A DNA stretch of 64,000 nucleotides from Thermoplasmatales archaeon (GCA_027343225.1 DAHWMK010000022.1:136266-200265); one strand, 5' to 3'. Counted from the first letter of the stretch, positions 4,234-38,683 are shown. The notes: generated from the letters alone by a model not told the origin. A program made the numbers and translations.

Positions 4234-5445
4234 TCACTTTGATGCGGTAACAGAGCCGGAAATGCTATCAGCGTTCCTACTTATTGCACTTCTCAGAGTG
4301 GGGGAGAAGACCACAAGTGCGATTGCTGCAGCGACTACCACTGGAGTGACGATAAAGAACGGCATCGAAAAGCCATAAGTCCCTGCTATATATCCTGCTA
4401 GAATCGGTGCTATTGCGGCTCCCGCCCATCGAAGGAAATTGTAGGATGCGGAAGATACTGATCTCGAAAATGGGGAAACTTCCATGGCCAGAGAGGTGAA
4501 GGAAGCGTTAGAAATACCGCATAAAACCCCAGAGATAACAATGACTTCCAATCTGTAAGAAGGGTAAAGACCCATCAGAACGAAAAGCATTGCAAAGATA
4601 AAGAGGACCAGCTGTTCAAGCAAGAATCTGTCCATTCTCTTTACCAACCTTGGAACCAAAACAACAGAGGAGACGGCAACCAGAACTCCCCAGAGGAAGT
4701 ACGTTATCCCCAGCTCGAACGTTGTAAGGCCCGATAAGGTCAGCGGAGTATATGCCAGGATTGTGAAAAAACCGAAGTTGTAGCCGAGGGCAATTATTGC
4801 ATTCAGGAAAACTGGTCTGTTTTTGAGGGTCTCTATGATCTCTACAGGAGTTCTCTTCTTCTCTGCCTTTGGCGGCTCTCTAACAAATGTAAGTGTAATT
4901 ATGAAGCCGATAGCCATTAAAGTGGCAGTCCCGAAGAAAGGATATCGCCAATTGTAGGATCCAAGAAGGCCACCAAGAAGTGGCCCTGAAGCTATTCCAA
5001 GGCCAAGTGCTGCCTCGTACACGGTAATTGCGCGTTCAATCCTTCCTGATGATCCAGATGCAACCCCGACTATGATTGAGAGTGCAGTGGAAGTGAAGAA
5101 TGCGTTGCCAAGACCCCATCCTCCTCTAAATACCGCAAATATTCCTATGTTCGGTGAGAGGCCGGAGAGCGTCGCAAAGAGGACAACCACTAGAAGTCCC
5201 GCAATGAGAGTCCTCTTACTTCCGAACCTTGTTGAGAAGTAGCCAGATATGAACATTGATACGGACATCACAGCAATATAGCTGGTGAAAAGCCATTCTA
5301 TTTGGAATGGAGTTGCGCCCATCTCCCTGCCTATGAGAGGAAGAAGTGGATCTACTACACCTATACCCATGAAGGCGATGAATGTTGAAAATGCGACTGC
5401 CAGTACTCCACTTCTTCCTAGCGACTGCACCTTTCGCCAATGCAT
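4234..5445 (-). CDS. MFS transporter
   Basis: 403 aa with about 12 hydrophobic segments and an MFS-like loop motif GYFSTRFGSKRT after TM2. Confidence 0.8.
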   Translation of the reverse strand: MHWRKVQSLGRSGVLAVAFSTFIAFMGIGVVDPLLPLIGREMGATPFQIEWLFTSYIAVMSVSMFISGYFSTRFGSKRTLIAGLLVVVLFATLSGLSPNIGIFAVFRGGWGLGNAFFTSTALSIIVGVASGSSGRIERAITVYEAALGLGIASGPLLGGLLGSYNWRYPFFGTATLMAIGFIITLTFVREPPKAEKKRTPVEIIETLKNRPVFLNAIIALGYNFGFFTILAYTPLTLSGLTTFELGITYFLWGVLVAVSSVVLVPRLVKRMDRFLLEQLVLFIFAMLFVLMGLYPSYRLEVIVISGVLCGISNASFTSLAMEVSPFSRSVSSASYNFLRWAGAAIAPILAGYIAGTYGFSMPFFIVTPVVVAAAIALVVFSPTLRSAISRNADSISGSVTASK

Positions 5446-8214: not shown

Positions 8215-9639
8215 TCACTGATGTTCAGATGTGCCTATTTCTTTGCCAACTTTGTCTAAGTCTTCCTTCTTTCGGTATCTTCCTATTGCTATTGCAACGC
8301 CTATTCCGCTAAGGATTACTGCTATCACCCAATAAGAAGCGATGTTAAGTGGGTAGGATGGGAGCGGGATGAAGACTCCATAAATTGCGAATGCATAGAC
8401 GAACGTAGCGACCAGTGGGAAAATTGCAAAGGGCAAAACTTCCTTCATTTTTGCCTTGAGAGTTCTTGTACCCCAAACTGGGAGTGAGAAGTTAGCAATT
8501 ATATGAACCACGTAAAGAGAAGCACCATTCATCGTGGTTATCACTGCAGCCGCGGTAAATGGTCCCCATATGAGCCCGCCCACTAGTGCGATAATGACAA
8601 CTACAATCATTTCCACTATGATCACTTTGTAGGGAGCACCCGTCCGTTTTGCTACGTGCGAGAGAGCTTTAGGAAACACTATAGAATCTCTGGCCATAGC
8701 AAAACCCGTTCTACTGAGTGCGTTACCTTCTGCGATCCCGTTGGATATGAAGCTGTTGAGAGTGAGTATGATAAATATGGTTGCAGCAACTGGCCCTCCA
8801 TATTTCGCAACTACGACGAACCCTGGGTTAGAAGTAGAAGCAAAATTTCCCATGTTATTAATTCCCCACCCTACCGTAAAAGCATATGTACTCATGATAT
8901 AGGCAAGGGCTGCCATCCCTATGGCTATAAGAATCGCCTTTGGCACTGTCTTCTTGGGTTGTTTCATTTCTTCAGAGAGAGTGATTACAGACCCAACTCC
9001 GACATAACCTAAGATAGCATAAACTGTAGCAAGTCCGACTTGACTGAAGCTATGGCCAGTAAACGTGAATGGAAGGACGGAGTTGGATGGACCCACTTTC
9101 GCGATTATTACTATGGAGATGATTACCAGGAACACTATTTCCAGTACTCCTCCGATCATTGTATAGAAAAGGGATGGGCGCAGTCCGCTCAGTAGGAGAA
9201 TTGTAATTATGAGGAATGGTATGAACATCAGCGGAATCCACCCCAGCGGATTTGATGAAAGGCCCGGAACAATGGGCCAAAGGACGCCAGCAAAAAACAA
9301 GATGGAAAAGCCACTCACGGCACCAAGCAAGTTAAAAAGGTACAGCCAAGATGCAAATATACCAGTTCGGGAGCCAAATCCCGCTCTTATGTAAGAATAG
9401 TAGCCACCAGCGTGAGAAATCCTCTTTGAGAACGCATAGTTCATATACATTGCAGACAGAACGCCTATGACTGCTATGACGTAGGTAATGGGCAACGATG
9501 CCCCCAATATTCCCGCTTCAACTACATAGAAAGATGCCGCGGTGGCAGCAGGAGCAACAAAAGACAGGCTTTGAAAAACGCCAAGCCAAAGACCACCGAC
9601 ATTTTTCCTAAGCTGAGTATTAGAACCTTCGACAGCCAT
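8215..9639 (-). CDS. APC-superfamily amino acid/polyamine permease
   Basis: 474 aa with about 12 TM segments and APC-like composition. It lies 4 nt upstream of hisD. Confidence 0.8.
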   Translation of the reverse strand: MAVEGSNTQLRKNVGGLWLGVFQSLSFVAPAATAASFYVVEAGILGASLPITYVIAVIGVLSAMYMNYAFSKRISHAGGYYSYIRAGFGSRTGIFASWLYLFNLLGAVSGFSILFFAGVLWPIVPGLSSNPLGWIPLMFIPFLIITILLLSGLRPSLFYTMIGGVLEIVFLVIISIVIIAKVGPSNSVLPFTFTGHSFSQVGLATVYAILGYVGVGSVITLSEEMKQPKKTVPKAILIAIGMAALAYIMSTYAFTVGWGINNMGNFASTSNPGFVVVAKYGGPVAATIFIILTLNSFISNGIAEGNALSRTGFAMARDSIVFPKALSHVAKRTGAPYKVIIVEMIVVVIIALVGGLIWGPFTAAAVITTMNGASLYVVHIIANFSLPVWGTRTLKAKMKEVLPFAIFPLVATFVYAFAIYGVFIPLPSYPLNIASYWVIAVILSGIGVAIAIGRYRKKEDLDKVGKEIGTSEHQ

Positions 9640-28248: not shown

Positions 28249-29327
28249 TAGAAAACACCTCCAAGATAGAGGGCCAGGCCGGCACTTATCAGCAAATTTA
28301 TGACGCTAAGTGGAAGAAGATATTTCCACCCCATTTGCAGAAGATGATCTATTCTGACTCTGCCCAGCGATATCCAGGTTAAGAGGAATATGAATATGAA
28401 CACGGCTCCCTTTACTACCAGCCAAATGGTTCCCGGAAATATCGGGCCTTCCCAGCCTCCAAGATAGACGACCGCAACTACGAACGCAGTAAGAGCCATG
28501 AATCCAAAATTACCCATATAAAAGATTCCGTACCTCATACCGCTATATTCAGTTGAGAATCCACTCACGAGTTCACTTCCGCTCTCAGGAAGATCGAAGG
28601 GAGGGATCGATTGCCTTCCAATCATTGCCAGGAAGAAGACAATGAAACCCAAGATTTCAGGAATGATGAATGGGATGAATCTCTGCGCTGTAACGATGTC
28701 GTTCGCACTGTAGCTGCCCGCCAATATAATTACCGAAATTATGGATATCAGCATAGGAACCTCGAATCCCATGTCCTGTGCCGCAGATCTCAGAGCACCG
28801 TAAAGTGAAAACTTGTTGTGAGAAGCAAGACCACCGATGATTTCTCCAACCGGAGCAATTGTCATAAAGGCAATAAGAAACAGTATTGTGTAATTGAAAT
28901 TAACAACCATCAGGTTCAGAATTGAGACACTTCCAAACGGAATGAGTATGAAGCCCAGAATGACAGGAGTGAAGACAAGGTAGGGTGCAACCTTGTAAGC
29001 AGTCCTATCGGCTGAGGTGGGTATAATGTCCTGTTTCTGTATTAGCTTGAACACATCCGCTATGAGCTGGAGCGTTCCCCAGATACCGACCCTGTTTGGG
29101 CCTATCCTGTTCTGAACATCGGCCATGTATTTTCTGAAAACATAAATTATGATGATGACGGCTACCATGGAGAGGGCGAATACCAGTACGACCTCAACAA
29201 CGGCAACTATGAAGTAGGCGATCCAGAGCCCCACTGGAATCCCATAGAATGTGAATGGAACAAAGTTGATGTGGAGGAACTTGACGATTCCGTAGAGGAT
29301 GCTCATGAGGAAGAAGAATAGATTCAT
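28248..29327 (-). CDS. nuoH: NADH:quinone oxidoreductase subunit H
   Basis: 359 aa polytopic protein with VQNRIGPNRVG, AAQDMGFEVP and SGFSTEYSGMRY motifs. Confidence 0.92.
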   Translation of the reverse strand: MNLFFFLMSILYGIVKFLHINFVPFTFYGIPVGLWIAYFIVAVVEVVLVFALSMVAVIIIIYVFRKYMADVQNRIGPNRVGIWGTLQLIADVFKLIQKQDIIPTSADRTAYKVAPYLVFTPVILGFILIPFGSVSILNLMVVNFNYTILFLIAFMTIAPVGEIIGGLASHNKFSLYGALRSAAQDMGFEVPMLISIISVIILAGSYSANDIVTAQRFIPFIIPEILGFIVFFLAMIGRQSIPPFDLPESGSELVSGFSTEYSGMRYGIFYMGNFGFMALTAFVVAVVYLGGWEGPIFPGTIWLVVKGAVFIFIFLLTWISLGRVRIDHLLQMGWKYLLPLSVINLLISAGLALYLGGVF

Positions 29328-30430
29328 CTATCCACCTCCCCAAACACGGGGTCTATAGAGCTTACAGCGGCCGTAAGGTCAGCTATCTTGTATCCCTTCA
29401 ACATCGTTGGAATCGAAGAAAGGTTTGCAAAACTCGGGCTTCTTATCCTTACTCTATAGGGTATGGACGATCCATCCCCTATAAGATGGATTCCGAACTC
29501 CCCCTTGGGCGATTCTGTTGGAACGTACGATTCTCCCGTGGTCTTTAACCTGACTAGCATCGGCTTAGAATACTTCTTGTTGTAGAATTCACCCTGAGGG
29601 ATTTTTTCCAGGACCTGTTTGACTATCTTCACACTCTGTCTCATCTCCTCTATTCTCACGAGGAATCTTGCATAGACATCTCCCTCGGTTCTGGACGGGA
29701 CATCAAAGTTTATCTTGTCGTAAAACAGGTACGGCGAATTTTTCCTCACGTCTCTCTTCATCCCCGAGGCCCTCTGCATGGGACCTGTAACACCATATGA
29801 CAGCACGTCGTCAGCAGTCAGAACACCGACACCCTTTGTCCTGCTGACGTATATGTAGCTCTTTCCAAGAATTGCCTGGATTTCTTCCAGTTTAGATTCG
29901 AAATCTTCAGTCCAGGCTCTTATCATCTCCAGCGCCTTGGGAGTGACATCAGAATATACTCCGCCAATGGCGAAATAGTTGTAGAGAAGTCTGCTTCCTG
30001 TGATCTCATCGAATATCCTTAGAATCCTTTCCCTCTCTCTGAAACAGTAGAAGAAAGGAGTGAGCATTCCCATATCTAGACCGTGGGTGCCTAACCAGAT
30101 CAGGTGTGAGGCTTCTCTGTTCAGTTCCACCATGAGCATTCTGATCCACTGCGCCCTCTCAGGAACCTGTACGTCCATGAGGCTTTCCACCGCTAGAACA
30201 TAACCGAGTTCCATGTTCAGAGCAGCAACGTAGTCGAGCCTGTCGATGTAGATCAGTCCTTTCGGATAAGAACCCATCTCAGCCAGTTTTTCCGCGTTTC
30301 TGTGAAGATATCCTATGACGGGTTGAGCATCCACAATAATTTCTCCGTCAAGTTTTACTTTGATTCTGAGGACTCCGTGCGTGGATGGATGCTGAGGACC
30401 AAAGTTGACTTCTATTACTTTGTCCTCCAT
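29324..30430 (-). CDS. nuoD: NADH:quinone oxidoreductase subunit D
   Basis: MEDKVIEVNFGPQHPSTHGVLR... The C-terminus is DPVFGEVDR. ATG 30430 lies 1 nt after the nuoC stop and follows GGAGGG. The track start at 30493 is over-extended into nuoC. Confidence 0.92.
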   Translation of the reverse strand: MEDKVIEVNFGPQHPSTHGVLRIKVKLDGEIIVDAQPVIGYLHRNAEKLAEMGSYPKGLIYIDRLDYVAALNMELGYVLAVESLMDVQVPERAQWIRMLMVELNREASHLIWLGTHGLDMGMLTPFFYCFRERERILRIFDEITGSRLLYNYFAIGGVYSDVTPKALEMIRAWTEDFESKLEEIQAILGKSYIYVSRTKGVGVLTADDVLSYGVTGPMQRASGMKRDVRKNSPYLFYDKINFDVPSRTEGDVYARFLVRIEEMRQSVKIVKQVLEKIPQGEFYNKKYSKPMLVRLKTTGESYVPTESPKGEFGIHLIGDGSSIPYRVRIRSPSFANLSSIPTMLKGYKIADLTAAVSSIDPVFGEVDR

Positions 30431-30431
30431 T

Positions 30432-30887
30432 TCAGTATCCCTCCGTCTTTTCGTAGGAAACCCTATCCTCTCCATCGTCTCCGAGGTTAACATACTGCTT
30501 CTTGTCCATCGGATAGTCCTTCCTCAGTGGATGACCAACCCATCCCTCCGCAAGCAGGATTCTCTTCAGGTTCGGGTGATTCTTGAACTTTATCCCAACT
30601 AGGTCCCACGTCTCCCTCTCGTGCCAGTCTGCTCCCTTCCAGAGTGATGTCACTGAATCAACTTCATCATTGGTTTTGGTCTTGACTATAAGATGGGCAC
30701 TGCTGGACGATGAAAGAAGGTGGTACATGACCTCAAGGTGATCCTTGTAATCCACGCCAGAAATCATCAATAGGGTGTCGAATCCCTCGTCCTTCCTCTC
30801 TTTCAGGTATTGCAGGATATTTTCCTTTGCTACGTAGACGACCCTAATCCCGTTTTTGGTAGAAGACTCGCTCTCCGTCGGTATCAA
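30432..30887 (-). CDS. nuoC: NADH:quinone oxidoreductase subunit C
   Basis: 151 aa. Contains [27 protein letters not shown], the NuoC signature. Confidence 0.9.
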
Positions 30888-31342
30888 TGTTTCACCTTTC
30901 CCGCAACTATTCTATCCTGAAGCATCTTCAGAGCTTGAATCAGCGCTTCAGGTCTCGGAGGGCAACCATAGACATACACATCGACCGGAACTACCTGATC
31001 CACTCCATCCACTACCGAATATCCTCTGACATAAGGACCGCCTGCAGAGGCACAGGCACCCATGGAGATGACGAACTTCGGAAACGCCATCTGATCGTAC
31101 AGTCTCCTGATTCTCGGCGCCATCTTTTTTGTGACTGTTCCTGAAACTATCATGAGATCTGAATGTCTTGGGGAATCTCTGAAGATGTCTGAGCCAAATC
31201 TTGCCCAGTCATAATCTGATCCCATCGCACTCATCATTTCTATGGCGCAGCACGCCAGTCCAAAGGTGAAGGGCCAGAGCGACTTGCCAGTTCCCCATTT
31301 TAGTGCCTCATCCAACGAGGTAACGAGAATGTTATCCGACAC
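30884..31342 (-). CDS. nuoB: NADH:quinone oxidoreductase subunit B (N2 cluster)
   Basis: 152 aa with the [20 protein letters not shown] and GCPPRPE cysteine motifs. Confidence 0.93.
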
Positions 31343-31703
31343 TGGACCACCTCATATATCCTTTCTTAGACGCGTAGAACAGTCCGGCTAGCATTATGGC
31401 GATAAACAGGACGACATCCAGAAAAATTCCAGTTCCTAGAGACTTAACGGAACCAGCCCACGGAAGAAGGAGAATGAAGTCAACGTCAAAAACAACGAAT
31501 GCCATTATGAAGAAGTAGTATTGAAGAGGAAGCGGCGACTGAAAGTCACCGACAGCTACCTCTCCGCACTCGTAGTTGTCGTGAGTATATCTCCCGTACG
31601 CCTTGGGCGAAAAGTGATGTGCCGTTCCCAATAGTATCGCTATAATTATAGGTACAATAATGACTGCCAGAGCAAGGGCAGCCAACTCAGGGGTCATGCT
31701 CAT
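31332..31703 (-). CDS. nuoA: NADH:quinone oxidoreductase subunit A
   Basis: 123 aa with 3 TM segments and YECGE plus [14 protein letters not shown] motifs. First gene of the nuo cluster. Confidence 0.88.
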
Positions 31704-31725
31704 CCATCCTCAAGTGATTTATCAA

Positions 31726-31733
31726 ATTTATAT
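31726..31733 (-). promoter_or_regulatory. Candidate TATA box for the nuo operon
   Basis: Minus strand reads ...AACATATAAATTTGATAAATCACTTGAGGATGGATG. The ATATAAAT centre lies about 27 nt upstream of the nuoA ATG, in the 61-nt sdhB-nuoA spacer. Confidence 0.35.
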
Positions 31734-31764
31734 GTTTTTAGAATCGTGCTTGACATATTGGGCA

Positions 31765-32568
31765 TCAGGAAACACCAGAAACGGATTTTCTCTCTGGACC
31801 TTTTGTTGCTTCCTTTTGTTTGAACTTGACGAAAACGTTGGTTGTGAGAGTTTGACGGAGGAGCTGGATTGCGAGAGCAGGATCCACTCCCTTTGGACAC
31901 ACCTCCGAACATGCTCCGGAAAAGTGGCATCGCCAGACGCCGTGTTTGGAATCGAGTGCATTTAGTCTCTCGTTGAAACCTAGGTCCCTGTTATCAGCGA
32001 TATACCTGAATCCCTGGGCCAGTGCCTGTGGTCCAAGATAGAGTTCATCGGATGCACTTGTAGGACAGGCAGATAAGCACAAGCCACACAGGATGCAATC
32101 AGTAAACATTGCAAATTCTTCGCGTTGTTCAGGAGTCTGAAGGAACTCGCTCTTTGGTTCCTCCTCTTCCCTGATTATGAACGGCTTTACTGTCTCGTGG
32201 TTTCTGAACAACTTTGAGATGTCTGGAACAAGGTCCTTTGTTATCTCATAGTTGCCCATTGGGTCGACCTTTATAAGATCCTTTCCAAGTTCCAATACCT
32301 GGGTCTGGCAGGCAAGTCTCTCCTTTCCGTTTATGATCATTCCGCAGGATCCACATATTCCCATCCTGCAAGAGTACCTTGCAGCCAGAGAATGATCCAG
32401 ATGCTCCTTGATGTAGAGTATTGAATCTAGGACAGTCATCCCTTTCTGCACGGGGACTTTGTATTCCATATATTTAGGCAGTTCCTTGTTCTCAGGATCG
32501 TACCTTCTGACCCTGAACGTAACAGTCTTAACTACTTCTCCAAACCCCTTCAAAACAAGCTCTTGCAT
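31765..32568 (-). CDS. sdhB: Succinate dehydrogenase iron-sulfur subunit (operon 1)
   Basis: 267 aa with CRMGICGSCGMIINGKERLAC, CILCGLCLSACP and CHFSGACSEVCP cluster motifs. Confidence 0.92.
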   Translation of the reverse strand: MQELVLKGFGEVVKTVTFRVRRYDPENKELPKYMEYKVPVQKGMTVLDSILYIKEHLDHSLAARYSCRMGICGSCGMIINGKERLACQTQVLELGKDLIKVDPMGNYEITKDLVPDISKLFRNHETVKPFIIREEEEPKSEFLQTPEQREEFAMFTDCILCGLCLSACPTSASDELYLGPQALAQGFRYIADNRDLGFNERLNALDSKHGVWRCHFSGACSEVCPKGVDPALAIQLLRQTLTTNVFVKFKQKEATKGPERKSVSGVS

Positions 32569-32569
32569 A

Positions 32570-32953
32570 TCAGAACCCTCCGTTCAGTGCTACAATAACA
32601 GTTCTGGATCCCCAGATGAAGACTATAAGGGCTACTATTACGAGAGCATATGTTATGATCTTGTCTGCCCGTGCTCCCGGGAATATCTCCGAGAGTATGA
32701 CCCTGAAGCCATTAAAGACATGAAATACTAGGAACGTCAGCAGTAACTCCAGAACTGACCCCCATATTAAAGAGGAGTACACTGCCCGCACCCAGGAATA
32801 GTAAAGTGTTCCACCCACCAGAATGTGGGCACCGCTTGTGCCACCATAAGCATACAGTACCTTGTCTGGACTGGGTGACAGAACGCTTATCAACAGGAAG
32901 TGGAAAGACCCAAACACCACGACAAGCAGCCCGGTCAGGTATTGCAAAAACAT
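32570..32953 (-). CDS. sdhD: Succinate dehydrogenase membrane subunit D (operon 1)
   Basis: Three hydrophobic segments between sdhC and sdhB. ATG 32953 (MFLQYLTG...) avoids overlap with sdhC. The track start at 33013 and upstream GTG codons are alternatives. Confidence 0.7.
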   Translation of the reverse strand: MFLQYLTGLLVVVFGSFHFLLISVLSPSPDKVLYAYGGTSGAHILVGGTLYYSWVRAVYSSLIWGSVLELLLTFLVFHVFNGFRVILSEIFPGARADKIITYALVIVALIVFIWGSRTVIVALNGGF

Positions 32954-32967
32954 CACCTGCGACTCTC

Positions 32968-33417
32968 TCACACTATCGCCCCCGTGAAAATGAAAACTAT
33001 TCCAATAGCGCATATTACCAACATGAATATAGCAACGGCGACCTTGAGGGCGTTGTTCAATCCTCGAAGCGACTTAGGCTTGTAAGGATATTCAGGTCTG
33101 TAGGGCTTCGGAAGCAGCAAACCGTTCTCCACTACGGTAAGCCTGATGCCATTCAGAGCGTGGTACGTTGCGGCAATGAGAATCGCAGACAGTATGTAGG
33201 GGCCGTAGTGGACTCCAAAAGGGTAGTCAAGATCTACCATGATCTTGTTCCACGTGACCGGTCCATTCAGTATGTTTGATGTCTCCCAGACGTGAGCCAT
33301 CAGGTAAAGACCGAGTGCAATACCTGTGAGTCTGTGAAGTGCATACATCCATCTGTCCGTCCCGTACTTGAATGGGTTGAACCAGAAAATCCAGCCTTTC
33401 TTGTTTTCTATCGTCAT
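32968..33417 (-). CDS. sdhC: Succinate dehydrogenase cytochrome b subunit C (operon 1)
   Basis: 149 aa with 3 TM segments and HRLTGIALGLYLMAHVWE-type His-containing helices. Confidence 0.8.
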   Translation of the reverse strand: MTIENKKGWIFWFNPFKYGTDRWMYALHRLTGIALGLYLMAHVWETSNILNGPVTWNKIMVDLDYPFGVHYGPYILSAILIAATYHALNGIRLTVVENGLLLPKPYRPEYPYKPKSLRGLNNALKVAVAIFMLVICAIGIVFIFTGAIV

Positions 33418-33426
33418 TGAATCACC

Positions 33427-35154
33427 TCAGTACACCCTCGCTTCCGGCTTCCACTTTGTTAGCGTCACTGGACGATAACTGATGTTCAATGCACCATCGA
33501 TTCTCTGAGCAATCGTGTGTTTCAGATAGTTTTCATCGTCCCTCTTTGGATAATCGGTTCTGAAATGGGATCCTCTGCTCTCTCTTCTCTCGAGAGCGCT
33601 GTGCACGACAACTTCCGCCAGTTCGACGAGGTTCTTCATTTCCAGAGAAGCGATCAGGTTTTGATTGTACACATTTCCCTTCTCAGAAATCGAAATCTTT
33701 TGGCTCTTCTCAATGAGTCCTCTGATTATCTTTAAGCCCTCGGTGAGACCCTTCTCATTCCTGAAAACGTAGGCGTCCTTGTCCATAGTCTTCCAGAGTT
33801 CTCTCTTAATGTCGTAGGGATCATTGTCTCCCTTGTCCTTGTAGGCATCTGCCAAAAATTCCTCTGCTCGCTTTCCATCCCCATCGGTTAGACTTACGGA
33901 CCCGCTGTTAGATAGCAGCCATTTCGCCGAATCCTCTCCAGCAATCTTTCCGAAGACGACGCACTCGCTTGTAGAGTTGGCACCAAGCCTGTTCGAGCCA
34001 TGGACAGATAGACATGCAGTTTCTCCGGCAGCCCAGAGGCCTGTTACTCCGGTGAAGCCCGTGCGCGTGACATCTATCCCACCCATAGTGTAATGGGCAG
34101 AAGGTCTGACTGGCAGAGGGGAATCCACCGGATCGATGCCAACATAGTGGATGCCAATCTCCCTCACCTGGGACAATTTTTCCTTGATTTTCTCCGCACC
34201 GATAGGCGAAAAATCCAACAATAAGTAGTCCAATCCATCAGGTCCCTTGAATCCTTTTCCTTCCAGGATCTCTGTCATCATGCTTCTGGAAACTATGTCT
34301 CTTGGGGCCAAGTCCTTCTTAGTGGGGGCATATTTCTCCATGAATCTTTCCCCCTTCGCATTTCTGAGTATGCCTCCATCTCCTCTGACCCCCTCCGTTA
34401 TGAGAATTCCTGAAGGTACAAGACCCGTAGGATGGAACTGGACGAATTCTATGTCCTTTAGTTTCATACCCCGTCTGAGGGCAACAGCGAGACCATCTCC
34501 AGTGACTAGATGTGAATAGGTTGTATATCCATACAATCTTCCTAGTCCTCCGGTAGCAATTATTCCAGCTCTCGCCTTGAAAATTCTGGTCTGTCCTGTT
34601 GGAATGTCAAATGCCATCACTCCCTTGAACTTGTTGTTTTCAATTATGAAATCATAGACAAACTGCTCGTGAAACTTGTCTATGTTCTGATACTTGAGCA
34701 TTGTATCATAGAGTGTGTGAACCTCATAGAAGCCTGTTCTGTCAGAGGCAAATGTTGCTCTCGGATACGAATGTCCACCGAAAGGTCTCTGAGCAATCCT
34801 CCCATCATCCCTCCTTGCCCAAGGTATTCCCCAGTGTTCCAGCTCTAAGATATCCAGTGGTGCCTGCCTGACGAAGAATTCAATTATATCCTGATCTCCA
34901 AGATAGTCCGAGCCCTTTATGGTGTCGTAGGCGTGAAGGTCGAAGGAGTCTCCCTCATCCATGTAGAGTACTGCGGCGGATCCGCCTTCTGCTGAGATCG
35001 AATGCGGTCTCATCAACTGATTCTTTGCTATTATCGCAATCCGCAATTTATCCTTCCCAACTCTGGCTGCTTCAATCGCAGCCCTAAGACCCGCCAGACC
35101 GGAACCAATTATGACTAAATCGTAATCAAAGATTTCGACCAAATAGATCTCCAA
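33427..35154 (-). CDS. sdhA: Succinate dehydrogenase flavoprotein subunit (operon 1)
   Basis: 575 aa with [15 protein letters not shown], the covalent-FAD His context [16 protein letters not shown] and RGSHFR. The track start is TTG 35154. A second TTG at 35142 is possible. Confidence 0.92.
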
Positions 35155-35170
35155 TAAGAAAGTGCCTGAC

Positions 35171-35180
35171 GATATAAAAA
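35171..35180 (-). promoter_or_regulatory. Candidate TATA box for sdhACDB
   Basis: Minus strand reads GAGAATTTTTATATCGTCAGGCACTTTCTTATTGGAG. The TATA element lies about 20-30 nt upstream of the two candidate TTG starts. Confidence 0.3.
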
Positions 35181-35195
35181 TTCTCAGTTTTAGCC

Positions 35196-35210
35196 ACTAA
35201 ATTAAATTTA
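35196..35210. promoter_or_regulatory. 15-nt palindrome CTAAATT-A-AATTTAG upstream of the sdhA TATA box
   Basis: Two perfect 7-bp arms around one central base, lying between the two complex II operons. Confidence 0.25.
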
Positions 35211-35271
35211 GTTTACCTAAATGGAAAATAAATGGATAAAACTCAAAACTCACTCACCTATTCCTCACAGA

Positions 35272-35442
35272 TCAGGTGATCAAAATTGAAGATGCAAAGA
35301 GTATGAAACCTACTATCACCATTCCGATCACAGGAGTCATTCCAAGGTCAATCACTTTGTACAGTACCCCCGCTATCTCAATCAGGAATATCCCGAGGAA
35401 GAACAATGGGTATCTGTACCTGCTAGGCAGAATTTTCAGCAT
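35272..35442 (-). CDS. Unannotated 56-aa small membrane protein (two predicted TM helices)
   Basis: Below the ORF-track length cut-off. Hand translation gives MLKILPSRYRYPLFFLGIFLIEIAGVLYKVIDLGMTPVIGMVIVGFILFASSILIT*. The ATG lies 3 nt after the stop of the anchor gene (TGAGGCATG) and is preceded by GGGAGG. Confidence 0.55.
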   Translation of the reverse strand: MLKILPSRYRYPLFFLGIFLIEIAGVLYKVIDLGMTPVIGMVIVGFILFASSILIT

Positions 35443-35445
35443 GCC

Positions 35446-36165
35446 TCAAAGCCTCCCGTGTACTAGGAGGATGTTAGGAATAATTCCAGAGACCATTCCC
35501 CTTATGAACAGGTCAACGAAAACAAACATTATCAGACTCGTCCAAGCTATCGCCTCGTGATGCCCGTTCAACCTAGACTGGAACCTGTAGAGAGAATTTC
35601 TCTTGTTCTTGCTCACGGGGCAGTTGACACAATCGTTGTGTCCCCCGATCAAGTGCCTCACCGAGTGGCAGGAGAAGGTATAGAAGGTCACAGCAAGGGC
35701 GTTTACGGTGAGGATTATCGTTCCCAGACTCACGGTTAGCAGGCCAGAATATGTTATCGAATGATAAATGTCGTAATAGAAGAAAGGAAGAACTCCCCAA
35801 GCGGTGTACATGAAATATCTGTGAACATTCTCCACCCTGAAAAATCCAGTCTCGCCGCTGTACCCCCTTGTTTTCGAATCTTTCCTGGCATCCGTGGCGC
35901 AATTATTCGGGTGATTGAAGAGGTGTCTATGGTAATCCTTTCTGTATGCATAGCAGGTGACCCTGAATAGGGCGACCAGAGGCAGGATGAGGATAGTTGG
36001 AGTGTAGAATGGATCAGTCAGACCGTCGTAAACTGGAACTCTGTAGATGAAGAGGAGAACCGTGCCCAGAAGCGTTATCAGTACAAATGACCAGAATCTC
36101 CAGTTCGGTTCAAGGAATTCCGGGGGGATAAGATGCCTGATGGGAGATTCGCTCGCAGATCTCAT
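35446..36165 (-). CDS. Atypical single membrane anchor of the second complex II (5 TM, Cys/His-rich loop)
   Basis: 239 aa with about 5 hydrophobic segments. The loop motif SCHSVRHLIGGHNDCVNCP lies at 35620-35670. The gene overlaps the Fe-S subunit gene by 4 nt. It shows no resemblance to the sdhC/sdhD pair of operon 1. Confidence 0.65.
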   Translation of the reverse strand: MRSASESPIRHLIPPEFLEPNWRFWSFVLITLLGTVLLFIYRVPVYDGLTDPFYTPTILILPLVALFRVTCYAYRKDYHRHLFNHPNNCATDARKDSKTRGYSGETGFFRVENVHRYFMYTAWGVLPFFYYDIYHSITYSGLLTVSLGTIILTVNALAVTFYTFSCHSVRHLIGGHNDCVNCPVSKNKRNSLYRFQSRLNGHHEAIAWTSLIMFVFVDLFIRGMVSGIIPNILLVHGRL

Positions 36166-36911
36166 TTGCTGCCACTCCTTCTTCTCCTGGATCTTATAAA
36201 CATCGCAAGCGGATCGTACTGATTGTTAACAGCCCTTTCCTTCTCTGGGATTATTGCATTGTCTGTGATGTGTATCTCTTCGGGGCAGACTTCAGTACAG
36301 CACTTGGTTATGTTGCAATACCCCAGTCCGGCGTCCTTGTTCATGAATTCTGACCTGTCAAGCGCATCCAGAGGATGCATGTCGAGTGAAGCAGCCTTGA
36401 CGACATGCCTAGGCCCGAAATAGTTAGTGCTGTGCTCCCTTATCACGTGGCAGACATTCTGGCAAAGAAAACACTCGATGCACTTCTTGAATTCCTTTGA
36501 TCTCTCTATGTCAACCTGGGACATCTTCCACGGTTTTTCCAGACCTTCCTTTGGAGTGAATTTAGGAATCCGCTTCAGTAGTTCCCAGTTTTCTGACACG
36601 TCAGTAACCATGTCCTTTATGAGAGGGTATGCCGCTATAGGCGATACGGTAATCTTCCCCTCCTTTAGCGAATCAACCCGCGTCTTGCACATGAGGGCTG
36701 GCATGTGGTTAATCTCAGCGGAACAAGACCCACACTTACCTGCAGAACAGTTCCATCTCAAGGAGAGATTAGGGTCAATGTGCCTTTCTATGTATTTCAT
36801 AGCATCCAGAACAACCATTCCTTCTTCTCTCGGTACGTCGTAATCGACATACTTCCCCTCACGTTCCACAGAAGGGTCGTGCCTGTACACACTAACTCTT
36901 ACGGTATCCAT
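36162..36911 (-). CDS. sdhB: Succinate dehydrogenase/fumarate reductase iron-sulfur subunit (operon 2)
   Basis: 249 aa with CSAGKCGSCSAEINHMPALMC, CIECFLCQNVC and CNITKCCTEVCP. Confidence 0.88.
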   Translation of the reverse strand: MDTVRVSVYRHDPSVEREGKYVDYDVPREEGMVVLDAMKYIERHIDPNLSLRWNCSAGKCGSCSAEINHMPALMCKTRVDSLKEGKITVSPIAAYPLIKDMVTDVSENWELLKRIPKFTPKEGLEKPWKMSQVDIERSKEFKKCIECFLCQNVCHVIREHSTNYFGPRHVVKAASLDMHPLDALDRSEFMNKDAGLGYCNITKCCTEVCPEEIHITDNAIIPEKERAVNNQYDPLAMFIRSRRRRSGSK

Positions 36912-38638
36912 CAGTATACCTCCTCAGGCACCAGTTTCTTAAGCTCGTCCGGTATCTTCGGAACCTCTCTCCACTCTAGTTTCATTCCATTATCCCCCTT
37001 GGTGTAAATTATGTTCTTTCTCAATTCTGGGTTCTTCTTCGGGAAATCGCTTCTGGCATGCGCACCCCTGCTCTCCTTTCTTTCAATTGCCCCTCTGACA
37101 ATGGCCTCGGCTGCAATTAGCATGAAAGGAAGTTCGAGCGCCTGCAGCAGTCCCTTGTTGTACTTTAGACCACCCCTAACGCCGGCCATTGTCGAAGTCC
37201 CCTTCAGATCCATCACAGTTTTCAGAGCCTTTCTGAGATTCTCCTCATTTCTTATGATACCTACGTTTTCACTCATGTTTTCCGCAAGTCTCTCGGCAAT
37301 CTCGTGAGGATTCAATCCCTCCTTCCCAACGAATGACTCCACCCTCTCTATTTCAGCCGAAACTACGGATTCATCGATCTTCCCAATTGAAACTTTCTTT
37401 GCATAAGAGGAAGCCCCCTCTCCACTCCTCTTCCCGAAAACGAGTATATCTGCAAGGGAATTACCCCCGAGTCTGTTTGCACCGTGGAGTCCGCTTGCAA
37501 CCTCTCCCGATGCGAACAGTCCTGGAACGTTGGTTGCGGTCGTCTCTGGATCGACTCTTATCCCTCCCATCTGGTAGTGCACAGTTGGTGCGACTTCCAT
37601 CTTCTCCTTCGTTATATCCACTCCCGCGAAATCTAAGAACTGTTTGTACATGCTTGGCAGCTTCTTCTTGATGAAGTCAGGTCCCTTGTGGGTTATGTCC
37701 AGGTAGACCCCTCCATGCGCAGTACCTCTCCCGGCCATTATCTCTGCATAATTGGCCCTTGCAACAATGTCCCTAGCATCTAGTTCCATCTTCTTGGGTG
37801 AATAGCGCTGCATGAATCTTTCACCCTGGGAGTTCAGAAGTATCCCTCCCTCTCCCCTCACGCCTTCGGTGACAAGCAAGCCCTTAACCCCTGGAGGATA
37901 AACCATGCCCGTCGGATGAAACTGGATCATCTCCATGTCCATCAATTCCGCTCCGGCGTCGTAAGCAAGTCCAAGCCCATCTCCGGTTGACTCCCACGAA
38001 TTCGATGTAACCTTATAGATTCTACCGCAACCTCCCGTTGAAATGATCACGGCCCTAGAACTGAAAACGTAAAACTCGCCCGTGTTGAGCTTGAGTCCAA
38101 CAGCTCCAACGACCCTTTCCCCATCCTTCAGAAGCTTCGTAACGTAGAGCTCGTCGAAGAACTTTATGTCTCTGTGAAGAATCTGATCCTCAAGCGTCCT
38201 TATTATCTCAAGACCCGTTCTATCACCAACGTGACAGAGTCTCCTGTATGTGTGAGCCCCAAATGCCCTCTGCATTATGGTTCCCTCCGGCGTCCTGTCA
38301 AAGAGGGCACCATACTCTTCGAGCTCTCTTACCCTCTCAGGAGCCTCCTTTGCTAGGAGCTCAGCCATCCTGTAGTTTGAAATGTAAACTCCCTCTTCCA
38401 TGGTATCCGCGAAGTGGACCTCCCAGCTGTCTTTTGAATCCACGTTTGCAAGGGCTGCGGCAATACCTCCTTCTGCCATGACCGTGTGCGCCTTTCCAAG
38501 GAGTGATTTGGAGAGTATGGTCACCCTCGCTCCCGAATCGAAAGCAGAAATCGCCGCTCTCATCCCTGCCCCTCCAGCCCCAATTATAAGAACATCCGTC
38601 TCGTGTTTAACATATTTCGAACTCATATAACTCATCAA
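36911..38638 (-). CDS. sdhA: Succinate dehydrogenase/fumarate reductase flavoprotein subunit (operon 2)
   Basis: 575 aa with DVLIIGAGGAGMRAA, GKAHTVMAEGG, IQFHPTG, RGAHARSD and GANRLGGNSL. Confidence 0.9.
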   Translation of the reverse strand: MMSYMSSKYVKHETDVLIIGAGGAGMRAAISAFDSGARVTILSKSLLGKAHTVMAEGGIAAALANVDSKDSWEVHFADTMEEGVYISNYRMAELLAKEAPERVRELEEYGALFDRTPEGTIMQRAFGAHTYRRLCHVGDRTGLEIIRTLEDQILHRDIKFFDELYVTKLLKDGERVVGAVGLKLNTGEFYVFSSRAVIISTGGCGRIYKVTSNSWESTGDGLGLAYDAGAELMDMEMIQFHPTGMVYPPGVKGLLVTEGVRGEGGILLNSQGERFMQRYSPKKMELDARDIVARANYAEIMAGRGTAHGGVYLDITHKGPDFIKKKLPSMYKQFLDFAGVDITKEKMEVAPTVHYQMGGIRVDPETTATNVPGLFASGEVASGLHGANRLGGNSLADILVFGKRSGEGASSYAKKVSIGKIDESVVSAEIERVESFVGKEGLNPHEIAERLAENMSENVGIIRNEENLRKALKTVMDLKGTSTMAGVRGGLKYNKGLLQALELPFMLIAAEAIVRGAIERKESRGAHARSDFPKKNPELRKNIIYTKGDNGMKLEWREVPKIPDELKKLVPEEVY

Positions 38639-38671: not shown

Positions 38672-38683
38672 ATATAAATTTTT
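38672..38683 (-). promoter_or_regulatory. Candidate TATA box for complex II operon 2
   Basis: Minus strand reads CTCTAAAAATTTATATCTTGTAAAATACTC..., about 39 nt upstream of ATG 38638. Confidence 0.3.

Follow-up and report, generated by a model that had tools for sequence, protein, structure and literature searches.

A Probable Archaeal Orthologue of the Mycobacterial Sdh1-Type (Type F) Complex II, Encoded with a Conserved Small Fourth Gene

Introduction

A 64,000-nucleotide stretch of DNA from a Thermoplasmatales archaeon (GCA_027343225.1, DAHWMK010000022.1:136266-200265; the window, from whose first letter all positions are counted) carries, on its minus strand, an operon for a succinate dehydrogenase (complex II) with an unusual membrane anchor, next to a second and conventional complex II operon. 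Taken as a whole, the first locus is best explained as encoding an archaeal orthologue of type F complex II, the class exemplified by Sdh1 from mycobacteria, an assignment that we consider likely. All three subunits are homologous to those of Sdh1 from Mycobacterium smegmatis (Msm), and the anchor is probably accompanied by a second, tiny membrane protein, as suggested by a conserved gene immediately downstream. To our knowledge, experimental work on type F complex II has been confined to one mycobacterial enzyme, studied as a tuberculosis drug target. The window comes from an I-plasma-like metagenome-assembled genome (MAG) of an uncultured, acidophilic member of the Thermoplasmata, distinct from Thermoplasma proper; identity is 91% to the nearest species representative and 84% to I-plasma.

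The features of the operon are the following:

36911-38638, minus strand: type F sdhA, flavin adenine dinucleotide (FAD) flavoprotein; 575 aa counted from TTG 38638, although 574 aa from ATG 38635 is likelier
36162-36911, minus strand: type F sdhB, three-cluster Fe-S subunit; 249 aa
35446-36165, minus strand: type F membrane anchor (SdhC-F); 239 aa, with five predicted transmembrane (TM) helices, N terminus in and C terminus out
35620-35670, minus strand: Cys/His stretch of anchor loop 4, C166-H167-x3-H171-x7-C179-x2-C182, in a predicted cytoplasmic loop (placed by codon arithmetic)
35272-35442, minus strand: small fourth gene, a conserved open reading frame (ORF) for a predicted 56-aa two-helix membrane protein; not annotated before

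Homology of the Three Subunits to Mycobacterial Sdh1

The SdhC anchor of Sdh1 has five helices, with a cytoplasmic N terminus and a periplasmic C terminus, and holds a Rieske-type [2Fe-2S] cluster ligated by two His and two Cys residues (Zhou et al. 2021, PMC8054011). His-C155 and His-C240 are named as ligands, and their double Ala mutant abolishes quinone reduction in an enzyme that works in vitro as a succinate:quinone reductase (PMC8054011). An earlier note on this DNA, made from the sequence alone, had drawn an analogy to an enzyme of this kind, and the direct homology of all three subunits turns this analogy into a demonstrable relationship. The note had also described three chained reading frames for proteins of 575, 249, and 239 aa; they lie on the minus strand, with exactly the coordinates and lengths claimed, and overlap by 1 nt (36911, sdhA and sdhB) and 4 nt (36162-36165, sdhB and the anchor gene).

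The flavoprotein matches the Pfam families FAD_binding_2 (7.8e-102) and Succ_DH_flav_C, and its best PDB match is the Sdh1 flavoprotein (7d6v_A, E = 3.2e-172), followed by 6lum_A (3e-127). The predicted context of covalent FAD attachment, GKAHTVMAEGG, stands at residues 48-58, and the catalytic motifs HTVMAEGG, HPTG, TEGVRGEGG, ARD, HYQMGG, and GANRLG were all found. The Fe-S protein, also recognised by Pfam, holds 12 cysteines (positions 55, 60, 63, 75, 144, 147, 150, 154, 199, 204, 205, and 209), that is, the 4+4+3 pattern of a three-cluster subunit plus one extra residue, as had been proposed. It exceeds the cutoff of the Sdh1-type NCBIfam equivalog NF009052 (327 bits against 256), and 7d6v_B is by far its best PDB match (E = 8.1e-83, with the runner-up at 3.7e-26). 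Its C-terminal tail (…EKERAVNNQYDP…) is the counterpart of the Sdh1 tail that bears the quinone-site Tyr, with Y232 aligning to Msm Tyr-B236.

These two proteins also resemble the subunits of thiol:fumarate reductase, whose TfrA and TfrB models are their second-best NCBIfam matches (651 and 148 bits, respectively), and Tfr proteins mis-annotated as Sdh are known from the literature. The operon might thus be taken to encode a soluble Tfr-like or dicarboxylate oxidoreductase, with the 239-aa protein as an unrelated membrane protein, a reading that we regard as highly improbable. Both scores fall below the model cutoffs (718 for TfrA and 385 for TfrB), and the Fe-S protein, besides passing NF009052, aligns to no more than positions 2-221 of the TfrB model (488 positions) and hence lacks the thiol-reducing half. 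Furthermore, homology links the 239-aa protein to an anchor whose place in complex II is proven by structure, its gene shares 4 nt with sdhB, and the arrangement is conserved. A scan of species representatives (one genome per species) returned 193 stretches with a relative, the best 80 of which are the related loci referred to below; sdhB lies directly upstream of the anchor gene in 75 of them.

The anchor itself matches no Pfam or NCBIfam model, PF01127 included, while both anchors of the neighbouring operon match PF01127, bearing out the view that it is unlike the adjacent SdhC/SdhD pair. Among all PDB chains, the only significant sequence match is chain C of 7D6V/7D6X (phmmer, E = 3.3e-23, residues 52-234). 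An AlphaFold2 model computed from 65 homologues (predicted local distance difference test, pLDDT, 77; predicted template modelling score, pTM, 0.75) has five long helices, in agreement with the approximately five TM segments noticed earlier. When this model was compared with the PDB by Foldseek, as the earlier note had suggested for the Sdh1 and heme-b anchors, 7d6v_C was the only significant match (E = 4.5e-8, probability 1.00, TMq 0.59), and no heme-b anchor reached significance. The positive-inside distribution of charges indicates that the Cys/His loops 83-110 and 165-202 are cytoplasmic and face SdhB; the second of them lies between helices 4 and 5, hence before the last TM helix, as had been noted. 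Being all-helical and without any Pfam match, the anchor is not a canonical Rieske domain (PF00355, with its CxH…CxxH boxes); the term "Rieske-type" refers here to the 2His/2Cys ligation only, with ligands coming from separate helices.

Conserved Ligands and Accessory Cysteines

The combined alignment comprised 119 archaeal and 108 actinobacterial anchors (227 sequences). The Msm numbering was rebuilt from this alignment and an identical database protein, with H155 and H240 recovered correctly as a validation of the mapping between both proteins. Six Cys/His columns are invariant in both groups:

35953-35955: C71, equivalent to Msm C114
35899-35901: C89, equivalent to Msm C132
35821-35823: H115, equivalent to Msm H155, a published His ligand
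35668-35670: C166, equivalent to Msm C206
H167, equivalent to Msm H207
35557-35559: H203, equivalent to Msm H240, a published His ligand

The ligand positions are kept in nearly all diverse representatives of the family. Judging from this conservation, H115 and H203, together with two of the three cysteines C71, C89, and C166, are the candidate ligands of a membrane [2Fe-2S] cluster.

The Cys/His loop that first drew attention to this protein (SCHSVRHLIGGHNDCVNCP, residues 165-183, with C166 to C182 encoded at 35620-35670) is present as described, but its reading as the cluster motif does not hold, since both published His ligands map outside it, to H115 and H203, and it shares with the universal set only C166 and H167. 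Its conservation was borne out in large part and is well beyond what chance would produce: C166, H167, C179, and C182 are invariant in the 119 archaeal homologues, and H171 (Msm H211, nearly invariant) is kept in 98 of them, while H176 is variable (N in 54, R in 36, Y in 17). An end-to-end alignment with heme-b anchors combined with an unconserved loop, which the note had named as speaking against a type F-like enzyme, was therefore not what was found. Archaeal anchors further exhibit an invariant H85 and near-invariant H81 (117/119) and H202. C179 and C182, invariant in 119/119 archaeal anchors, have no counterpart in the solved Msm enzyme; in Actinobacteria, the former column is H219 and the latter a gap, and C209 and H223 are conserved there.

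The wider family helps to place these additional residues. A profile search against 1.84 billion representatives, in which most archaeal sequences collapse to about one representative, returned 1445 clusters (50% identity) at E ≤ 0.001, of which 852 reach E ≤ 1e-10. Of 54 diverse sequences whose six-residue core is intact, 30 carry a CxxC (or CxxxC) in loop 4, including a cluster named from Candidatus Eisenbacteria, and 11 an Msm-like Cys at position 169; both occur together in a single sequence, and 13 have neither. The CxxC is thus not an archaeal invention but occurs in many bacterial representatives too. The fact that both arrangements are mostly exclusive, and that 13 sequences lack both, argues that the extra cysteines are accessory and come in alternative versions, of which the solved mycobacterial enzyme represents one. 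By this comparison of sequences, the archaeal H85, C179, C182, and H81, distributed over two cytoplasmic loops, would constitute an accessory site in place of the mycobacterial C209, H219, and H223.

It could be argued that this site is a second metal centre, binding Zn or an Fe-S cluster through H85, C89, C179, C182, and possibly H167/H171, with a redox or structural role and without a described mycobacterial equivalent. H85, C89, C179, and C182 are indeed invariant in the archaeal sequences, as H81 nearly is; both loops are cytoplasmic and poorly predicted in the absence of a cofactor or partner; Actinobacteria carry a different conserved set in the same region; and the mutual exclusion of CxxC and C169 is what alternative builds of one site would produce. 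However, the 13 intact-core representatives with neither cysteine arrangement indicate that the site is dispensable for the family, no extra metal is listed for Sdh1 (PMC8054011), and the cysteines could instead contact SdhB or serve as alternative ligands of the one cluster. The covariation of residue 85 with CxxC is a weak association, as Asp or Asn is also found in 7 sequences devoid of CxxC and the counts ignore phylogeny, and it was not used as evidence for a shared site. All considered, a second metal centre seems unlikely, and we speak only of an accessory site.

A Small Membrane Protein Encoded Downstream of the Anchor

The anchor had been described as single, and one Sdh1-type anchor was indeed found, but a 56-aa two-helix ORF directly downstream had been overlooked. 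It was found by reading the 291-nt region regarded as intergenic: its ATG (35442) follows the stop codon of the anchor gene (35446-35448) after three bases (35443-35445), and its 56 codons encode MLKILPSRYRYPLFFLGIFLIEIAGVLYKVIDLGMTPVIGMVIVGFILFASSILIT. The N-terminal P-x-x-[YF]-R-Y-P-L-F-F and a G-F motif are conserved in its relatives, and the AlphaFold2 model is a helical hairpin of high confidence (pLDDT 92.9). In 14 close orthologues, the frame is always 56 codons long, its stop codons vary, and differences are distributed over the three codon positions as 1249:827:2967, a signal of coding sequence.

A hidden Markov model (HMM) built from tblastn matches was run on the 80 related archaeal loci, and it recovered the small ORF on the same strand, 6-76 nt downstream of the anchor gene (HMM match coordinates), in 78 of them. 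The contigs of the remaining two end 44 and 70 nt past the anchor gene, so that the ORF is found in 78 of 78 assessable loci. Five loci have no sdhB directly upstream of the anchor gene, and the small ORF follows the anchor gene in these as well: in three of them, the pair is divergent from sdhB-sdhA on the opposite strand (L069 and L080, labelled as Nitrososphaerota, and the unclassified L071), and in the other two (L058 and L078) no sdhAB was found, none being adjacent to the pair. The anchor gene and the small ORF therefore behave as a unit of their own. A profile search with the small protein returned 53 clusters of standalone proteins of 43-64 aa; the named ones are all "hypothetical protein", every taxon given is archaeal, and one representative is 100% identical to the protein of the window.

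We propose that this protein is a second small membrane subunit specific to the archaeal clade, which would pack against the anchor. The proposal is drawn from gene neighbourhood alone, as the protein is without homologues in the solved enzyme and the bacterial loci. These same data could be accommodated by an independent small membrane protein, or by a conserved non-functional frame, and several results would agree with that: no match was obtained in Pfam or PDB sequence searches, the HMM, even at E ≤ 10, gave no match in five bacterial type F loci, no fusion between anchor and small protein exists among 421 collected proteins, and no function is annotated. Nevertheless, its invariable position after the anchor gene in the assessable loci, including those without sdhB directly upstream, the short distances involved (three bases in the window and 6-76 nt elsewhere), the excess of third-position differences, the constant length, and the confident hairpin make it quite unlikely that this ORF does not encode a subunit. 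If it does, as we favour, descriptions such as "single anchor" or "three-subunit" may be inapplicable to the enzyme of archaea.

The mycobacterial Sdh1 operon (L081) is also flanked by small ORFs, at 4653-4949 (98 aa) and 8681-8842 (53 aa), which were considered as counterparts of the archaeal 56-aa protein and discarded, both being hydrophilic and unrelated. Together with the three subunit genes, they agree with the count of "five putative genes" that Zhou et al. cloned, only three of whose proteins were seen in the purified complex.

The Neighbouring Type A Operon and the Archaeal Distribution

The second complex II operon and the putative promoter of the first are as follows:

31765-35154, minus strand: neighbouring type A complex II operon, sdhA-sdhC-sdhD-sdhB (context, outside the type F enzyme)
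33427-35154, minus strand: type A sdhA
31765-32568, minus strand: type A sdhB, with the nuo genes next
38672-38678, minus strand: TATA-like TTTATAT, putative promoter of the type F operon, approximately 37 nt upstream of ATG 38635 (read by eye)

This operon, 291 nt downstream of the anchor gene and on the same strand, has the canonical sdhA-C-D-B order that the earlier note had stated, as well as two PF01127 anchors, and its best PDB matches belong to 6lum, the type A Sdh2 from Msm (SdhA with 6lum_A, 1.9e-143; SdhC with 6lum_C, 1.3e-6). Identity between the type F and type A copies is 37% for the flavoproteins (A1/A2) and 32% for the Fe-S proteins (B1/B2), values that point to old paralogues and not to a recent duplication. 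A TATA-like element, TTTTTATAT, near-identical to that of the type F operon, is found upstream of the type A sdhA (approximately 35170-35178), the respective contexts being aaTTTATATc (type F) and tTTTTATATc (type A). The presence of such an element before each operon suggests that both are separately initiated and regulated.

From 29324 to 38638, the minus strand carries both operons and the beginning of the nuo (complex I) operon in one contiguous series, with only some 60 nt between sdhB (31765) and nuoA (31332-31703). Regarding the starts of the reading frames, the type A sdhD ORF (147 aa, 32570-33013) overlaps sdhC (32968-33417) by 46 nt and is given a later start by gene callers on identical contigs (133 or 127 aa); the type F sdhA, for which the earlier note took TTG 38638, is called at 574 or 571 aa on identical contigs, the 574-aa version starting at the adjacent ATG, one codon later. 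The mechanical starts of both genes are thus probably too early.

The best 80 of the 193 stretches belong to Thermoplasmata (I-plasma, E-plasma, and Oxyplasma meridianum), Micrarchaeota (including the complete Ca. Micrarchaeum A_DKE genome), Marsarchaeota, Nitrososphaerota, and other DPANN-labelled MAGs, while Thermogymnomonas and Cuniculiplasma are among the protein matches. Only in 14 loci, all of the I-plasma-like clade, does the type F operon stand in tandem with the type A operon and Tyw1; outside this clade, it is usually the sole complex II in the fetched stretch (up to approximately 12 kb). Of 66 loci, 26 encode a class II fumarase near the type F operon and 13 a malic enzyme, and citrate synthase flanks bacterial homologues.

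Some labels in this collection call for caution. Archaeal-type operons that are 50-65% identical to that of the window were found in MAGs labelled "bacterium", "Methanothrix sp.", and "Gammaproteobacteria" (L016, L024, and L070), which are probably binning or labelling errors and not real hosts. Likewise, MAG SRP271791_co2_52 holds two full Tyw1/type F/type A copies on two contigs (L010 and L012), whose anchors are 80% and 77% identical to that of the window, and this bin probably mixes two strains.

Traces of these genes can be recognised in the literature. Yelton et al. (2013) tabulate two SdhA and two SdhB proteins in one genome column (13606_0106/0110 and 13606_0103/0109), and genes 0091-0110 of scaffold 13606 in their supplement show the same type F/type A/nuo order. 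Gene order and nuo adjacency of this scaffold fit I-plasma, and the table has no entry for genes 0107 and 0108, presumably the small ORF and the anchor. For A-, E-, and G-plasma, the same authors report a "missing SdhD" and a low-confidence SdhC, and Chen et al. (2018) recall abundant succinate dehydrogenase in ARMAN proteomes. These reports fit an expressed tricarboxylic acid (TCA) cycle enzyme in relatives, and are no evidence for the locus of the window.

Proposed Electron Path, Direction, and Confidence of the Assignment

By homology with Sdh1, oxidation of succinate would take place at the FAD of SdhA. The [2Fe-2S], [4Fe-4S], and [3Fe-4S] clusters of SdhB would relay the electrons to a Rieske-type [2Fe-2S] cluster, with two His and two Cys as ligands, near the cytoplasmic face of a five-helix anchor predicted to be heme-free. 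The final acceptor would be a membrane quinone of the naphthoquinone type, bound at the junction between helix 3 of the anchor (F108) and the C-terminal tail of SdhB (Y232). Cofactor content, electron path, quinone identity, and direction are all inferred from this homology. At the predicted quinone site, near the start of helix 3, Tyr-B236 and Phe-C147 are kept as Y232 and F108, L151 and I154 are conservatively replaced by V111 and V114, and Ile-C150 is Arg110.

With the same architecture, the enzyme could work physiologically as a quinol:fumarate reductase, or as a low-oxygen isoenzyme, leaving the oxidative TCA cycle to the type A enzyme. A division of labour is suggested by the tandem of two anciently diverged operons, each with its own TATA-like element, and related organisms are facultative or micro-aerobic. 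The type F SdhA also has Glu in HTVMAEGG, a position that is Glu in FrdA from E. coli and in enzymes for low-potential quinones, and Gln in ubiquinone-dependent SdhA. However, the type A SdhA has Glu as well (HSISAEGG), so that this residue does not discriminate between both enzymes. In most other archaeal lineages, moreover, the type F operon is the only complex II of the fetched stretch, located beside fumarase or malic enzyme, so that succinate oxidation must depend on it wherever the TCA cycle is complete; in vitro, Msm Sdh1 too reduces quinone with succinate. A reductive or low-oxygen role is for these reasons the less favoured reading, and an unlikely one.

Several observations weigh against the type F assignment or limit its detail. 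The SdhA scores below the curated cutoff of its top NCBIfam model (NF005866, 759 bits against 819). The fold match of the anchor is moderate (TMq 0.59, with a root mean square deviation of 9.3 Å), and the loops with C89 (pLDDT below 50) and C179/C182 (approximately 65) are of low confidence. Msm C209 is replaced by Val (V169), and the quinone contact Ile-C150 corresponds to Arg110. Neither the solved enzyme nor any of the five bacterial loci has a homologue of the small protein. As the Cys ligands of the Msm membrane cluster are not named in the literature text searched, those of the archaeal anchor can only be given as two of the three universal cysteines. The homology of all three subunits, the NF009052 match, the fold search, and the conservation of both published His ligands agree in pointing to a type F-like enzyme beside a type A enzyme, as the earlier note had supposed, and on balance this remains the likely reading.

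A broader model can be put forward more tentatively. The archaeal type F complex II may be a four-subunit enzyme, in which the hairpin subunit and the loop Cys/His site (H85, C89, C179, and C182) form a membrane module unlike that of the only solved type F structure, possibly with a second metal centre. Many acidophilic archaea (Thermoplasmata, Micrarchaeota, Marsarchaeota, and some Nitrososphaerota) may rely on this module, and not on a classical SdhCD pair, as their principal or sole complex II anchor. This model is plausible but falls short of being probable. If true, it would explain the long-standing annotations of a missing SdhD or a doubtful SdhC.

Significance

The enzyme belongs to a known class, and the assignment of its core to this family is solid. 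Full-text literature searches returned no earlier report of archaeal type F enzymes, although the existence of such reports cannot be excluded, and NCBI names some archaeal anchors "succinate dehydrogenase". No report was found of the wide archaeal occurrence, the A-B-C-small-gene operon, the 56-aa protein, or the alternative accessory Cys/His patterns.

Genes of the type F lineage are common in acidophilic archaea, as the 193 stretches from species representatives indicate, and they often constitute the sole complex II in the fetched stretch. Type F anchors would give an identity to the membrane subunits considered missing or of low confidence in the genomes of acid-mine-drainage archaea. The known distribution of membrane-embedded Fe-S clusters would likewise be widened, with natural variation separating the core from the accessory Cys/His residues. 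With the 56-aa gene there is a specific candidate for a complex II subunit not described before, and the type A and type F operons side by side offer a natural system to address why organisms keep two succinate dehydrogenases.

Comparison with Known Systems

The type A complex II, exemplified by the succinate:quinone reductase from Thermoplasma acidophilum, Sdh2 from M. smegmatis (6LUM), and the product of the neighbouring operon, shares with the type F enzyme the overall reaction and the architecture of the soluble module. However, the type A neighbour has two PF01127 anchor subunits of the heme-b type, which exhibit no detectable similarity to the type F anchor. Sdh2 from M. smegmatis also holds SdhF, a 3-kDa single-helix accessory subunit that sets a precedent for a tiny, operon-encoded subunit recognised late. 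SdhF differs from the archaeal 56-aa protein in its single helix and its membership of a type A enzyme, and the sequences are unrelated, so that the likeness is one of analogy only.

Closer to the archaeal anchors are the bacterial relatives of the CxxC type, such as the "succinate dehydrogenase" from Candidatus Eisenbacteria (cluster of P0276), which have in common with them a GG-x-x-D-C-[FY]-S-C loop and a hydrophobic residue 169. Their genes adjoin sdhA and sdhB in a TCA-cycle context. In contrast to the archaeal operons, the three bacterial operons of this type have the order C-A-B and no small ORF, and position 85 is usually Asp, whereas it is His in archaea.

The closest solved system is Sdh1 from M. 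smegmatis and M. tuberculosis (7D6V/7D6X; Rv0247c-Rv0249c), with homologous SdhA and SdhB and a homologous five-helix anchor, heme-free there and predicted to be so in the archaeon. The archaeal and mycobacterial anchors are only about 30-33% identical, and the genes are arranged differently, as A-B-C-small ORF in archaea and as (98 aa)-C-A-B-(53 aa) in the mycobacterial operon; the 56-aa two-helix protein is encoded in the archaeal operon only. The archaeal SdhA is 60 aa shorter, and the anchor is shorter by some 40 aa, being devoid of the N-terminal extension and of a Cys-containing periplasmic loop. This extra loop, between helices 1 and 2 of actinobacterial anchors, bears two invariant cysteines (Msm residues 74 and 79), possibly joined by a disulphide, and is found in none of the archaeal anchors. 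Among the accessory residues, Msm C209, H219, and H223 correspond to V169, C179, and a gap, while H85, C179, C182, and H81 are archaeal extras. Despite these differences, both published His ligands, the three universal cysteines, H167, the Tyr-bearing tail of SdhB, F108 (Msm F147), and the topology of the anchor are common to both enzymes.

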